The translations under genes were made by a program, and so were the position numbers. This document shows, one piece after another, positions 7,921-12,808 of a stretch of DNA of 12,808 nucleotides; position 1 is the stretch's first letter; every line of letters begins with the position of its first letter. The DNA comes from a virus. The notes beneath the pieces were generated by a model that saw nothing but the letters and a program-made list of their open reading frames with translations, did no database searches and had not been told where the DNA came from. The DNA lies in the UHGV virus genome UHGV-1333727; one strand, 5' to 3'.

Positions 7921-8150
7921 TGGATAAGACGGCAACAATTCTTCTTAGTCGCCCTGCCATCTGCCGTATGCTTGGGGGAATTAGCAGGGGAACGTTCTAT
8001 TCATGGCGTAAAAAGTGGGAGGAAAACGGAACTCCATTCCCGGACCCTGTTGATGTGTTGGGGACCGGGCGGGGCGTCATGTACCGCTATCAGGAGGTGA
8101 TGCGGTTCTTTGATAAGATCGGATTAACGCCAGCCAGGGATAAGACGTAA
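7920..8150 (+). CDS. AlpA-family (MerR-like) small DNA-binding protein, probable excisionase/integrase regulator (76 aa)
   Basis: ATG 7920 with GGGGA upstream. ...LLSRPAICRMLGGISRGTFYSWRKKWEENGTPFPDPVDVLGTGRGVMYRYQEVMRFFD fits the AlpA/Xis pattern (HTH followed by 'FP.P...G.R...W...EV..W'); it sits next to an integrase. Confidence 0.8.
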   Translation: MDKTATILLSRPAICRMLGGISRGTFYSWRKKWEENGTPFPDPVDVLGTGRGVMYRYQEVMRFFDKIGLTPARDKT

Positions 8151-9304
8151 TCCGCAAATTTATTTAACGCCTCCTTTTGTTCATCAAGATAATCATATTT
8201 GTCGTACACTGCCAGTATTCCCCTGAGTGAATGGCCTAATACCTTTTCCGCGACATGTACCGGAACACCTATAGCTGAAAGGTGTGTACGGCACGTCCTG
8301 CGGAGGTCGTGACAGGACCATGATTTGCCTCCCATCCTTTTACGCACGAAGATTGCAGCTACTTTTATCACTGATGCGTTTACTGGTCTGTTCCCTCCGT
8401 TAATCACTGGCGGGAACACATAATCATACTCATGGGAGGATAATACCTCCCTGAGCATTTTTATCGACAAATCTGATAATCCACGCCTGATTTCACTTCT
8501 TGTCTTCGCCACCGCCGCCGGGACGGTCCATACTCCGTTGTCCAGGTCGAGGTGTTCCCTTCTCATTTTCTGCAACTCCCCCACCCTGCACCCGGTTAGC
8601 AATAATAGCTTTAATGCTATCTTGTTCTGACGGTAGATCTGCGAATCATCCACCGTTCGCCAGAAATGGCCTATTTCATCGCACGATAAATAACGCTCGC
8701 CAACCGCATAATTTTCGCCTACGTCAACAACCCTGATATTGTTTATCGCTGTACTGGTCATTAGCCCGCGCCGGATAGCGCTGTTCACAACAATCTTCAT
8801 TCGCTTGAGTATCAGCCCAGCCGTAACCGCGTGGCCCGCCGCAGTGATCTCGCCGAATATGTCCATCCATTGTTTAGTGCTGACATCATCGGCAATATAC
8901 TCACCGAATTTATCGACAACATGGCGCTTAAGCGCGCTCCTGACGTCATTATATGCAACCAGCTTAATAACGTTCGGCAGGGATAAATAGTCACTCACAA
9001 TGGCGCTTATTGTTAATTTGCCACGCTCAATATTTATCGCTTGCTTTACTGAAACAGTTGGGTTTTTCCCCTTCGCTAATAGCTCTTTGTATTCTGCCAC
9101 CGCGTAGCGTGCATCTTTCAATGTCATACTGCCGTAATCGCCAATCTTCATCCTTACAGGCTTACCGTTGAACCTGTACCTGAACTGGAAAATAATTTTC
9201 CCCTTCGGGCTTATCCTGGCAGACAAGCCGTCGCGATCCGCTATCTCGTTCGGGCCGTCATATGGCTTGTTTGCTATTGCGCGTAATTTCGTATCCGTCA
9301 GCAT
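8090..9304 (-). CDS. int: tyrosine recombinase / integrase, P4-type (404 aa)
   Basis: ATG at 9304 (minus) with AGAGG 7 nt upstream. N-terminal LTDTKLRAIANKP...GLSARISPKGKIIFQFRYRFNGKPVRMKIGDY is the P4-type integrase arm-binding N-domain; catalytic region has ...TGCRVGE (Arg), HDLRRT (H-x-x-R) and ...GHSLRGILAVYDKYDY (His...Tyr). Confidence 0.95.
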   Translation of the reverse strand: MLTDTKLRAIANKPYDGPNEIADRDGLSARISPKGKIIFQFRYRFNGKPVRMKIGDYGSMTLKDARYAVAEYKELLAKGKNPTVSVKQAINIERGKLTISAIVSDYLSLPNVIKLVAYNDVRSALKRHVVDKFGEYIADDVSTKQWMDIFGEITAAGHAVTAGLILKRMKIVVNSAIRRGLMTSTAINNIRVVDVGENYAVGERYLSCDEIGHFWRTVDDSQIYRQNKIALKLLLLTGCRVGELQKMRREHLDLDNGVWTVPAAVAKTRSEIRRGLSDLSIKMLREVLSSHEYDYVFPPVINGGNRPVNASVIKVAAIFVRKRMGGKSWSCHDLRRTCRTHLSAIGVPVHVAEKVLGHSLRGILAVYDKYDYLDEQKEALNKFADYVLSLAGVNPILSKNRITS

Positions 9305-9320
9305 TCTGATACCTCTTTTT

Positions 9321-9342
9321 TTTGGTCACGATTTGGTACACA
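9321..9342. repeat. 22-bp direct repeat, copy 1 (TTTGGTCACGATTTGGTACACA)
   Basis: Matches copy 2 at 9562-9583 at 21 of 22 positions; contains GGTCACGAT. Confidence 0.7.
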
Positions 9343-9350
9343 GTTTTATC

Positions 9351-9472
9351 TGAACGGATATTAACACCATTGAACGGATTTAAACACACGACAGGATGAT
9401 TGAGATGTAACTTAGTGAATTTAAATGATATTTTTTATCAACCGTGAACGAGTCTGAACGGGATTGAACACC
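9351..9472. repeat. cluster of five TGAAC(G)-type iteron-like motifs
   Basis: TGAACGGATATTAACACC (9351-9368) and TGAACGGATTTAAACACA (9371-9388) are 20 bp apart; TGAACGAG (9445), TGAACGGGA (9455) and TGAACACC (9465) are phased at exactly 10 bp. Confidence 0.6.
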
Positions 9473-9561
9473 ACGAATCGTTACTGTCTGGAATGGTTAG
9501 CTTTGTGAATAATAATTTATAAAACAGTATGTTGCAGTGCTTTTGTTTTTGGTTTTGGGTA

Positions 9562-9583
9562 TTTGGTCACTATTTGGTACACA
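9562..9583. repeat. 22-bp direct repeat, copy 2 (TTTGGTCACTATTTGGTACACA), preceded by phased TTTGG tracts
   Basis: Copy of 9321-9342 with one mismatch; contains GGTCACTAT. Immediately upstream, TTTTTGG / TTTTGGG / ATTTGGT recur at roughly 8-10-bp spacing (9545-9580). Confidence 0.7.
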
Positions 9584-9608
9584 AAAAGAAACGAGGCGTT
9601 AGCCTCGT
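9583..9608 (-). terminator. rho-independent terminator of tail-fibre gene
   Basis: On the minus strand: stem ACGAGGC, loop TAAC, stem GCCTCGT (plus 9591-9608), followed by UUCUUUUU (plus 9583-9590), about 35 nt after the stop at 9641-9643. Confidence 0.6.
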
Positions 9609-9640
9609 TTCGCGCGGCGATGTTCTTCGCACATCACCTC

Positions 9641-11845
9641 TTATTCTTCGCTTCCGGTCAACTGACTGATAAGCGCTTCAAGTTTTGCTATCCGCTCATC
9701 CATTGCGGCAATGTTAGCTTTCAGGCTTGCGTTCTCCTCTTCCAGTTCGGTGACGCGGTTATCCGTTTCGCGTGCCACCTGGACAAGTAAACCAGTCACC
9801 GCCGCATAGTCAACATTAAGGTAACGTGTTTCTTCTCGTAGCTCGTTGCCGTCAACGGTCGGACCCTGCAATTCTTCACCGTAACGAGTAAACGATCCTA
9901 CGGCTTCCGGTAGCGCCTCCATTACTTCCTGTGCAATAACGCCAGCATAAGGAAGGCCGTTTTCCTTGAGCGTGTAGGTGTACCCGTTCATTTTGCGGAT
10001 TAATTCAGTGGCTTCACCTATAACCTGAATGTTATCTTTAAGGTCGCGGTCAGATGATTGGTGAAGTGTCTGGCATGTGATATTACCGCTAACTTCTGCG
10101 GTGGCGCTTTTAATCTTATACTCTACTGAGAGATCACGGACTTCAACCCTCCCATCGTGGCGAACAATAAGATCACCGTTTGTTTCACCTTTTGCGTTTT
10201 TAGCCCTGATGTGAACTTCTCCAAGCGTATCAGTATTTGTAGGCGCAAAAATAACGCCGCGTTCCGACTGATCCTCATTTTGGAACCATACATGGGCGGT
10301 TCCACTTTTTGAACGCAGGTATAGTGAAGGTGTTGCTTTAGTGATCGACAGATCACCTGACATAATGTCGCCGGATTTTTTCACCTGCGCATCGTTAGTT
10401 ACGTTACCAAGTCCAACATCCGATTTCGACGGCTTGTATTTGGTTCCGTATAGCTCATTTATGTTAAAAGTACCATTGTTGAGTCTATTATCGTTACTAG
10501 AGTAAATCTTTACTCTACCGCTTTCGTAATCGATATTAATAGCTGACCACGTATCGCCGCACCGCGAGAATATACCAGAACCGTGGCTGAAAATTGTTGA
10601 TTCGCTACCTGTTGGTTTTCCTGACCTCCAGAAACACCCACCTTTCGCCCTTAGCTCTTGTAGTAGTTCCTTATCGGTCATTTTACCATCCAAAGTAAGA
10701 CCGCTACCGCCAAGACCAAAAGCGCCTATAAGCATAGCATTAGAAAGGCCTAAATCTGCTTTAGTAGGTTTGTTTACCTGGTCGTAAATCCTTGCTGCTG
10801 GGCTTTCAATAAATCCTGAAGGTGCATTGTCTTGTTTAACAAATCCTTCAGGAATGTATAATTCCGTGTTGCCAGTCTGCGCCAGCACCGCTACTTTTGT
10901 GCCTTGAATATAAGATCGCTGGTAGCACCAGACCTCGATATAGCCGTCACCTTTAACCAGGCCGTAACGCATTTGACTATTATTGGGAAGGTTTGGTGAA
11001 CCGAGTCGGCGAATACTTAAAAATTTAGATATATTTTCACTGGTTACTTCGCCTGTGTCGTTAAGATCTCGAGCGGAGATCTCTATAAAGTCAATATTCC
11101 CGTAACTTAAACCGTAGCCACCGCCATTTGTAACCATTAGCGTTAAGTGGCACTCTGAAAACTTTGGATCGCTAAGTTTAGCAATCTTAACGTAAGCGCC
11201 ATTACCGCTAGTATTAACAGGCCAAGCACATTGGACCATTGGGCTGGTAAGCCTTCCCATTTGATTCAGATATTTTTGCGCCCTGTTCTCTGATGTTTTG
11301 GCGTTGGTTTCGCTTGTTTTCGCTGCCGTCTCACTTGCCTTAGCGTTGGTTTCTGATGTTTTCGCTGCCGTGGCGGATTTTGCAGCCGCTGTTTTTGACG
11401 CTTCTGCTGCGTTTTTGTCGGATCCTGTTTTTTGAGCGTTGGCGGTTGATTTGGCTGTCTCTGCGCGAATGTTGGTAAGAAGCTGATCCAACTGACCTTC
11501 GCCGCCAAAATCCTCCCACCACTCGACAGCGGCGGCGATCTCTGTTTCCTTGCCCTGGTAGTAACGCAGGGTTTCAGCCACATCCTGAGCAAGCCCATCA
11601 ACTGAGATCGAGTCAGATAGCAGGATGCTGAATTTTGTCCCGGCAGGGATGGCGGGGTTAGCCGCTGGCGTCACTGACAGTTCAGTGCCGCTTTTAATTT
11701 CTGTGATGGTAAAGATCTGTACCGGATTGCCAACAGCAATGAGCGTGCAACCTACACGAATAAGAGAAAGCGGCGCGGAAAAGTTTGTTCCCGTGCCTGT
11801 AACAGTATTGCCGTTGATGGCAATTGTTCCAGTTGTGTAAATCAT
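9641..11845 (-). CDS. phage tail fibre protein with Stf-like Ala/Lys/Thr/Ser repeat region and C-terminal intramolecular chaperone (peptidase S74-like) auto-processing domain (734 aa)
   Basis: ATG 11845 (minus) with GGAG upstream. Residues about 125-190 carry AAKTSETNAK-type repeats like those in lambdoid side tail fibres. C-terminal ~140 aa (...SSDRDLKDNIQVIGEATELIRKMNGYTYTLKENGLPYAGVIAQEV... then coiled coil) match the endosialidase-type chaperone domain with the Ser...Lys (S-x4-K) dyad. Confidence 0.9.
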   Translation of the reverse strand: MIYTTGTIAINGNTVTGTGTNFSAPLSLIRVGCTLIAVGNPVQIFTITEIKSGTELSVTPAANPAIPAGTKFSILLSDSISVDGLAQDVAETLRYYQGKETEIAAAVEWWEDFGGEGQLDQLLTNIRAETAKSTANAQKTGSDKNAAEASKTAAAKSATAAKTSETNAKASETAAKTSETNAKTSENRAQKYLNQMGRLTSPMVQCAWPVNTSGNGAYVKIAKLSDPKFSECHLTLMVTNGGGYGLSYGNIDFIEISARDLNDTGEVTSENISKFLSIRRLGSPNLPNNSQMRYGLVKGDGYIEVWCYQRSYIQGTKVAVLAQTGNTELYIPEGFVKQDNAPSGFIESPAARIYDQVNKPTKADLGLSNAMLIGAFGLGGSGLTLDGKMTDKELLQELRAKGGCFWRSGKPTGSESTIFSHGSGIFSRCGDTWSAINIDYESGRVKIYSSNDNRLNNGTFNINELYGTKYKPSKSDVGLGNVTNDAQVKKSGDIMSGDLSITKATPSLYLRSKSGTAHVWFQNEDQSERGVIFAPTNTDTLGEVHIRAKNAKGETNGDLIVRHDGRVEVRDLSVEYKIKSATAEVSGNITCQTLHQSSDRDLKDNIQVIGEATELIRKMNGYTYTLKENGLPYAGVIAQEVMEALPEAVGSFTRYGEELQGPTVDGNELREETRYLNVDYAAVTGLLVQVARETDNRVTELEEENASLKANIAAMDERIAKLEALISQLTGSEE

Positions 11846-11855
11846 CGCAATGACT

Positions 11856-11926
11856 CCATTTTGTTAATTAACGGAATAATTCTACCATTTTGTGATCTGT
11901 GTTGCATTTTCTGCTTACACAAAATG
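11856..11926. promoter_or_regulatory. candidate operator/promoter elements in the divergent tail-fibre/lipoprotein control region
   Basis: CCATTTTGTT (11856-11865), CCATTTTGTG (11885-11894) and the inverted copy CACAAAATG (11918-11926). No confident -35/-10 could be assigned by eye. Confidence 0.3.
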
Positions 11927-12022
11927 TATTTGTTGATTTGTGTCAATATACGAAATGTGCTTTTGTCGGATATTTAAGCCACCGGATGAACCGGATGAAC
12001 AAACGAGAATGAGGCTTTAAAA

Positions 12023-12271
12023 ATGAAAAACATGTTCAAAGTGGTTTTGTTCGCTGCGGCTGTAGCTCTTACTGGATGTGCTGTTGATAAGGAAGCTGCA
12101 TTGCATAACCTGCCGAATAGTGGAGTAATTCCACAGGATGTTGTTTATGATGTTAACGGGCATCTTGTCTATGACACTGAAAAACTGCCTTATACTGGTC
12201 AATGGTGTCACGAACTCGATCACAACATGCGCCGCATCGGTAGCCCTTCTAACTGTGTAGCTAACTACTAA
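12023..12271 (+). CDS. small lipoprotein (82 aa); candidate phage superinfection-exclusion / receptor-masking lipoprotein
   Basis: ATG 12023 with TGAGG upstream. Signal peptide MKNMFKVVLFAAAVALTG followed by Cys (lipobox LTGC); mature part ~63 aa with three further Cys; followed directly by a strong terminator. The functional call is inference from context. Confidence 0.85.
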   Translation: MKNMFKVVLFAAAVALTGCAVDKEAALHNLPNSGVIPQDVVYDVNGHLVYDTEKLPYTGQWCHELDHNMRRIGSPSNCVANY

Positions 12272-12278
12272 AAGAAAA

Positions 12279-12305
12279 CCCCGCGCGAAGCGGGGTTATT
12301 TTTTA
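12279..12305. terminator. bidirectional rho-independent terminator
   Basis: Stem CCCCGC (12279-12284), loop GCGAA, stem GCGGGG (12290-12295), then TTATTTTTTAT on plus; an A-run (AAAAGAAAA) precedes the stem, giving a U-tract for the convergent minus-strand transcript as well. Confidence 0.8.
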
Positions 12306-12686
12306 TATCCATGTTCCTGAACTTCTTGTTATAAGTATTAAACCTGGTTTTCTTTTTGCTGCATTAGATGTATTGGTAAAGTTTTCCGTCACCTCTACTG
12401 TAATTGTTGGGTATGTGAGGCCAGATACACAGTGCACCGCGACAGTTGACATTGCTGGGGTTGATGCTGGCCTTTCTATATCAATTGTTTTTGCGTGTCC
12501 GCTTATATTTATAGTTACATTGATGCGAGAAGATTCCCCATATGTATAGTATGACAAATCATATGGAATCATAACGTAAACTGTTTTTGATAAACTTGAT
12601 GAACTTGAATCAAGATAAGTTTTCGAAACGCGCCTGCTGCCATTTCCCCTCATTGACGGAAATACATCCTCGTTTATCACTGACAT
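12303..12686 (-). CDS. hypothetical protein (127 aa), Ser/Thr/Tyr-rich, in an AT-rich block; possibly a gene fragment
   Basis: Only long ORF in 12303-12808 and it ends at the bidirectional terminator. RBS is weak (GGTGA about 10 nt upstream), there is no signal peptide, and an in-frame stop lies directly upstream. Confidence 0.45.
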   Translation of the reverse strand: MSVINEDVFPSMRGNGSRRVSKTYLDSSSSSLSKTVYVMIPYDLSYYTYGESSRINVTINISGHAKTIDIERPASTPAMSTVAVHCVSGLTYPTITVEVTENFTNTSNAAKRKPGLILITRSSGTWI

Positions 12687-12724
12687 ACTTGCTACGTCAC
12701 CAACAAAACTTGTAGCTTTGGATT

Positions 12725-12808
12725 ATGGATCACTTTAAGTGGTTCTTCATTATGCTGGGTATGATAGGTATATATCTTTCTTTTGTTTTATGGTATAGCC
12801 TTTCTTTT
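12725..12808 (+). CDS. possible 5' end of a membrane-protein gene running off the window (partial; MDHFKWFFIMLGMIGIYLSFVLWYSLSF...)
   Basis: ATG at 12725 opens a frame with 28 sense codons to the window edge, encoding a strongly hydrophobic helix. RBS is weak (GGA 3-5 nt upstream). Manual translation only. Confidence 0.3.
   Translation, partial: MDHFKWFFIMLGMIGIYLSFVLWYSLSF

Follow-up and report, generated by a model that had tools for sequence, protein, structure and literature searches.

The window, by which we mean the whole stretch of 12,808 nucleotides that was analysed, can be assigned by its sequence to a mEp021-like temperate coliphage of the mEpimmI group (the name given to this phage group by Negrete-Mendez et al. 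2025, PMC11893012). It is colinear with the phages mEp010, mEp013, mEp021, mEp044, mEp515, mEp554 and MagusPhagus, and contains replication genes, an integrase gene (8090-9304, minus strand), a side tail-fibre gene, the lipoprotein gene lpp and the 3' end of gene J. The tail-fibre gene forms the end of the phage genome in E. coli prophages and lies beside ydaN/zntB, whereas here the integrase gene lies beside it, so that the window is in a circular or virion arrangement. The gap between the integrase and side tail-fibre genes measures about 335 nt (9305-9640), and attP should lie within it. At the other end of the window, the N-terminus of a 605-aa ORF (441-2258) resembles a homing-endonuclease module of the HNH/AP2 type, followed by a long C-terminal coiled coil; the relatives have 'homing endonuclease' genes annotated in the matching region.

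The side (lateral) tail-fibre gene (9641-11845, minus strand) encodes a protein of 734 aa with a C-terminal intramolecular chaperone domain (Peptidase_S74, PF13884, E=1e-13) and matches to tail-fibre PHROGs, and it is annotated as 'tail fiber' in the relatives. Within this gene, a stretch of 88 nt (10350-10437) is 92% identical to the gene of the L-shaped tail fibre of T5 (ltf/pb1) and is a mosaic piece common to a temperate and a virulent siphophage. The 3' end of J (12303-12718, minus strand; 137 aa plus stop) encodes the receptor-binding domain at the C-terminus of the central tail fibre; up to position 12718 its DNA is an exact match to J genes of E. coli prophages, and the last 137 or so residues of the window J equal the end of J in the H11 prophage. 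Between these two genes of the late tail operon, and on the opposite strand, lies lpp (12023-12271, plus strand; 82 aa plus stop), convergent with J and, as the first-pass annotation had it, back-to-back with the tail-fibre gene, from which it diverges across 177 nt. The order side fibre (minus), lipoprotein (plus), bidirectional terminator, J (minus) was found in all relatives, and the matching lpp layout in mEp010, mEp013, mEp044, mEp554, MagusPhagus and E. coli prophages.

Translation of lpp gives a signal peptide of 18 residues (12023-12076), MKNMFKVVLFAAAVALTGC, followed by the mature part (12077-12268), AVDKEAALHNLPNSGVIPQDVVYDVNGHLVYDTEKLPYTGQWCHELDHNMRRIGSPSNCVANY; the precursor starts with MKNMFKVVLFAAAVALTGCAVDK and ends with SNCVANY. 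The signal peptide has a basic n-region (K2 and K6), the h-region VVLFAAAVAL and the lipobox L16-T17-G18-C19 (12068-12079), in agreement with the pattern [LVI][ASTVI][GAS]C after a signal peptide, with the codon of the lipidated Cys19 at 12077-12079. The 82-aa lipoprotein with an LTGC lipobox read earlier was thus borne out, with a mature part of 64 residues when the lipidated cysteine is included. Residue +2 after this cysteine is Ala, and none of the homologues has Asp there. According to the +2 rule of the E. coli Lol system, lipoproteins without Asp at this position are sorted to the outer membrane, and because of its Ala we predict that Lpp is an outer-membrane lipoprotein. The C-terminal core of the mature part is conserved (TEKLPxTGQWC(62)HE..H..RRIGSPSNC(78)V..Y). 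Across the homologues C19 (kept in 27 of 27) and C78 (codon 12254-12256) are invariant and C62 (codon 12206-12208) almost so. By analogy with the Cys11-Cys58 disulfide of the exclusion lipoprotein Llp of phage T5 (PMC9586334), C62 and C78 probably form a disulfide in mature Lpp.

Codon differences between lpp and five close relatives are mostly synonymous (synonymous to non-synonymous from 9:3 to 23:5), as expected under purifying selection. Because homologues are numerous in phages and prophages, the cysteines are kept and synonymous differences dominate, lpp is clearly a genuine gene rather than a chance reading frame. Its GC content (0.438, against 0.455 in the phage part of the window) is not distinctive. 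An antisense ORF (12017-12223, minus strand, 68 aa) was rejected, the pattern of synonymous and non-synonymous differences being that of the plus-strand frame.

The ribosome-binding site of lpp, GAGG (12011-12014), lies 8 nt before the ATG and is unchanged in seven relatives. The 177 nt that separate the side tail-fibre gene from lpp (11846-12022), with a mean column identity of 94% over seven relatives, are the presumed site of the lpp promoter; a scan of this spacer found no sigma-70 consensus promoter, the top lenient match reaching 8/12. Just 5' of the ribosome-binding site there is a direct repeat, CCGGATGAA-CCGGATGAA (11980-12000), mostly kept in seven relatives, which could be an operator or another regulatory site. 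Small ORFs called 5' of lpp in relatives (e.g. mEp010_117) are PHANOTATE predictions that we regard as unsupported, and in the window no ORF of at least 40 aa is present directly upstream of lpp. Downstream, an intrinsic terminator (12272-12306) was called on both strands. It consists of a GC-rich stem-loop (12277-12297) directly after the lpp stop codon, preceded by an A-tract and followed by a T-tract, and its fold is indeed as strong as the first reading had supposed (-19.7 kcal/mol, z = -5.4; none of 200 shuffled sequences was equally stable). The terminator is shared with the convergent J gene, a point that had gone unmentioned; a terminator is annotated at the corresponding place in mEp010, mEp013, mEp044 and mEp554.

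The homology to J ends at position 12718, and the last 90 bases of the window (12719-12808), which cut J short, occur in no relative. The metagenome contig from which the window derives (OQVO01000263.1; 99.98% identity over 5271 bases) runs on into the gene of an MttB-family methyltransferase and a TIM-barrel gene, and in three other metagenome contigs these two genes are found free of phage sequence. At the joint, 52 nt stand in inverted orientation. All 10 of the 10 prophage copies examined that carry an identical Lpp have a full-length J (1777-1935 aa). Since the sequence passes here into the genome of an unrelated bacterium, with an inversion of 52 nt, and J is full-length in prophages, these 90 bases are most likely a chimeric joint of metagenome assembly and not phage sequence. 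A defective prophage or an insertion element was considered as the cause of the truncated J and rejected, as the joint enters an unrelated bacterial genome.

A known family of exclusion lipoproteins

The closest characterized relative of the window protein is gp116 of mEp010 (Lpp010, WWQ70279.1), to which it is 96% identical over 82 aa without gaps. The mature parts agree in 62 of 64 residues (97%); three residues differ, one in the signal peptide (M4V) and two (V44G and N45S) in a loop of variable sequence across the family. Lpp010 also shares with Lpp the lipobox, the cysteines, the spacer, the terminator and a gene flanked by J and the side fibre, both on the other strand, and differs in its neighbour, in that the receptor-binding domain of J next to the mEp010 gene is of another subtype. 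Lpp is 100% identical to an E. coli prophage protein (WP_075660626.1), and E. coli MIN12, whose prophage belongs to the 38 studied in PMC11893012, carries lpp with 100% identical DNA. Given the 96% identity to Lpp010 and the identical DNA in MIN12, the window lpp is to be classed on sequence as the type-C Lpp of the mEpimmI phages, a family that has already been described and functionally tested.

The family is narrow. Homologues occur in 44 phage records and in many E. coli prophage contigs, and among 5426 complete E. coli genomes 11 have Lpp, under the annotation 'hypothetical protein'. It matches the PHROG family phrog_12984 'lipoprotein' (E=8.9e-27; residues 7-82 aligned with 5-77 of the 77 profile positions). 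When 1.84 billion representative proteins were searched exhaustively with a profile, three true clusters at 50% identity were found and no distant relatives that would clarify the mechanism; two giant repetitive proteins in that search were regarded as spurious matches. Scans against Pfam, NCBIfam and PADLOC assigned Lpp to no family and gave at most noise at the level of the signal peptide, and a sequence search of the PDB at E<=10 returned nothing. AlphaFold2 models of the full precursor (pLDDT 55.8) and of the mature part (pLDDT 52.9), each from an alignment of 23 sequences, are unreliable, and a Foldseek comparison of these models with the PDB, with nothing below E=6, is uninformative at such model quality, also as to an Llp-like fold.

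In the published work, mEpimmI genomes were searched for lipobox proteins, which fell into four sequence types, two of which were cloned (PMC11893012). Plasmid-expressed Lpp010 ('type C') excluded mEp010, mEp044, mEp554 and lambda, all of which are LamB-dependent by knock-out, and left the OmpA-dependent mEp021 and mEp515 unexcluded, while Lpp021 (gp81 of mEp021, 'type A') excluded mEp021 and mEp515 (PMC11893012). The effect of exclusion thus follows the receptor, although mEp013, which is LamB-dependent, escaped both lipoproteins (PMC11893012). The first-pass annotation had proposed superinfection exclusion for the window gene from its context, a reading now carried by the activity of Lpp010, with its 97% identical mature part, against LamB-dependent phages including lambda (PMC11893012). 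For the window allele, which differs in two mature residues from the sole type-C allele assayed, exclusion is a prediction from Lpp010. We consider it very probable that type-C Lpp makes LamB unusable as a receptor for phages that dock with the tip of J, and so protects the lysogen from superinfection; the three other explanations that we weighed are each less likely.

One of these takes the published effect as indirect, an overproduced foreign lipoprotein lowering the abundance or assembly of LamB, for instance through envelope stress, without binding it. Every published test did rely on IPTG-induced expression from a plasmid (PMC11893012), but the same vector with two different lipoproteins gave reciprocal, receptor-specific patterns, and mEp013 still plates, so functional LamB must be present. 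Moreover, the mature domain is strongly conserved, under purifying selection, across temperate and virulent lineages, which points to a specific interaction surface. An indirect effect is therefore very improbable.

Still fainter is the chance that Lpp is a lipoprotein of lysogenic conversion with a role in host fitness (serum resistance or adhesion, as with Bor of lambda) that merely happens to reside in a moron slot. This slot does correspond to the position of lom in lambda, and the RefSeq label 'hypothetical' as well as the empty Pfam, NCBIfam and PADLOC scans would fit such a role. Against it stand the exclusion demonstrated for the ortholog Lpp010 (PMC11893012) and the fact that strictly virulent phages of the genera Seuratvirus, Nonagvirus and Dhillonvirus, which cannot gain from lysogenic conversion, keep homologues.

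The lipoproteins encoded downstream of gpJ in Seuratvirus and Dhillonvirus phages (bas21_0021 of GottfriedDienst, and those of CAjan, Seurat, EP23 and HH3) belong to the same family as Lpp. In Bas21 and HH3 the mature part is 61-64% identical to that of Lpp, with core and cysteines kept; they differ in belonging to virulent phages and in having a shorter and different N-terminal tether (GNGLNTG...). They have been predicted to be exclusion proteins (PMC9586334, PMC8594841), and the literature that we searched contained no experimental test of them.

Outside the family the resemblance is one of organization. T5 Llp shares with Lpp a precursor of about 77-82 aa, a lipobox, two further cysteines in the mature part, a gene that adjoins that of the receptor-binding protein (divergent from oad in T5) and the exclusion of phages using the same receptor. 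It differs in its target, FhuA, a TonB-dependent transporter that is blocked from the periplasm via its plug (PMC9586334), whereas LamB is plug-less. Cor (of phi80, N15, HK022 and T1; exclusion at FhuA) is likewise a lipoprotein of the outer membrane, of similar length and with two extra cysteines; in temperate siphophages its gene follows J, and it excludes phages sharing its receptor, which is again another one than LamB. The locus accordingly fits the pattern of Llp and Cor, a lipoprotein gene beside a receptor-binding gene, as had been suggested, and the lack of similarity that had been noted by eye held in profile comparisons, which align only or mainly the signal peptide. With hhalign, Lpp and Llp aligned over 19 signal-peptide columns only (probability 57%), with no detectable homology in the mature domain, and for HK022 Cor (probability 89%) the confident columns were limited to signal peptide and lipobox; the Cor family phrog_1119 matched residues 4-29 only (E=0.058). 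Lpp021 occupies the same slot in the same orientation in a sister phage, with exclusion shown experimentally, but its mature sequence is unrelated to Lpp (hhalign probability 20%, signal peptide only), and it goes with OmpA-dependent phages and has an additional structural gene behind it. Lpp would work like Llp and Cor, but these comparisons did not show it to belong to either family.

The tip of J as the likely partner and LamB as the likely receptor

The pairing of lpp with a receptor-binding gene, as proposed earlier, stands, but the cognate receptor binder is most probably to be sought in J, in its C-terminal domain, and not in the side tail fibre. The tip of the window J is 56% identical to J of MagusPhagus and about 41-45% identical to J-like tips of Seuratvirus and Dhillonvirus phages. 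A tblastn search with this tip matched 32 phage records, and among the 30 listed an Lpp homologue was found in every one (30 of 30), the co-occurrence spanning three phage groups among the listed records. In both loci examined (Bas21 and HH3) the lpp homologue lies directly downstream of J and convergent with it.

The same comparisons bear on the receptor. The Seuratvirus phages Bas21-24 of the BASEL collection use LamB as terminal receptor; Bas21, Bas23 and Bas24 carry a J domain of the window type together with an Lpp homologue, and Bas22, also a LamB user, likewise has a homologue. Bas25, an LptD-dependent Seuratvirus, is absent from the Lpp matches (44 phage records). Van den Berg et al. 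2022 (PMC9586334) had already written of LamB phages such as Bas23 that, behind gpJ, they 'likely do have SE lipoproteins'. By its identity of about 41-45% to the tips of the BASEL LamB phages, the receptor of the window phage would most likely be LamB as well. LamB was one of several candidate receptors named in the first-pass annotation, and the BASEL tips and exclusion by Lpp010 now single it out as the most likely of them.

In mEp021 the slot holds the unrelated type-A lipoprotein gp81, beside a J that confers OmpA dependence. As the type of lipoprotein switches with J and the receptor, the tip of J and the lipoprotein act as one exchangeable module. In mEp021, gp81 is followed on the same strand by a 311-aa 'virion structural protein' (gp80), which lies in the slot as well and has no counterpart in the LamB-type cassette; gp80 may serve as a receptor-binding protein of its own, directed at OmpA.

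Two subtypes of the J C-terminus accompany type-C Lpp; they can be aligned, are about 30% identical and differ by two inserted segments. The short subtype is found in mEp010, mEp013, mEp044 and mEp554, and the long one, with the two extra segments, in the window, MagusPhagus, the prophages, Seuratvirus and Dhillonvirus. Between the window and mEp010 the mature lipoproteins are 97% identical and the receptor-binding domains of J only 30%. Lpp is the more conserved of the two in every comparison (64% against 45% for Bas21 and 61% against 43% for HH3). The C-terminus of lambda J has no detectable similarity to the J domain of the window, and its match to the mEp010 protein is confined to the stalk that precedes the tip. 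Because Lpp stays at 97% identity where the tip of J falls to 30%, and because lambda, with an unrelated tip, is excluded as well, we infer that the target of Lpp is the LamB of the host rather than the fibre of the phage.

How the lipoprotein may act, and its wider meaning

In the scheme that we favour, the Lpp precursor would, after export, receive its lipid at Cys19, be cut by signal peptidase II and, going by its Ala at +2, be sorted to the outer membrane. There the mature protein of 64 residues, probably stabilised by the C62-C78 disulfide, would disable the maltoporin LamB, its presumed direct target, as a terminal receptor. In a lysogen Lpp would guard against superinfecting LamB phages, and during lytic growth it would spare the progeny wasteful adsorption to debris. 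Together with the receptor-binding domain of J, lpp, which runs against J and the side fibre on either side of it, would form a cassette that can be swapped.

LamB has neither a plug nor known allostery (PMC9586334), and the mechanism of Llp is therefore not simply transferable to Lpp. In addition, mEp013 carries the same mature Lpp, depends on LamB and is not excluded by Lpp010, from which it follows that Lpp does not simply remove LamB or occlude it completely, and that LamB is still present and usable. These same two points, the absence from LamB of the plug and allostery exploited by Llp and the escape of mEp013, would also suit a block after adsorption, in which LamB binds the phage and the insertion of the tail tip or the passage of DNA is prevented; to 'interfere with DNA ejection' is one of the two modes named by the authors of the exclusion study (PMC11893012). 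Exclusion, however, tracks the type of receptor (LamB or OmpA), phages with unrelated tails (lambda and mEpimmI) are both excluded, and the gene is tightly coupled in the genome to the receptor-binding domain of J and not to ejection proteins. We therefore consider a post-adsorption block unlikely, and retain the reading that Lpp makes LamB unusable as a receptor.

It is conceivable, at a little under even chances in our estimate, that the Lpp family disables the plug-less, non-allosteric LamB in a way unlike the periplasmic 'reverse allostery' of Llp and, as part of the same tentative reading, that one conserved Lpp covers unrelated LamB-binding tips (lambda J, the mEp010 type and the window type), with some tips (mEp013) having evolved escape. 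The disulfide-bonded C-terminal core of Lpp might for instance be threaded into the LamB channel from the periplasm, or Lpp might be displayed on the cell surface. This reading concerns the whole described family and is not specific to the window.

An exclusion lipoprotein could be recognised here from context alone by a reader that had only the sequence. Biologically this adds little, as a publication of 2025 already covers the gene family, where it sits and what it does, and its presence in LamB phages was pointed out in 2021-2022. The contrast in identity between Lpp and the tip of J and the co-occurrence of Lpp with the J tip both support a host-directed target, LamB, and the conservation of Lpp together with this co-occurrence could guide structural work and the design of cocktails for phage therapy.
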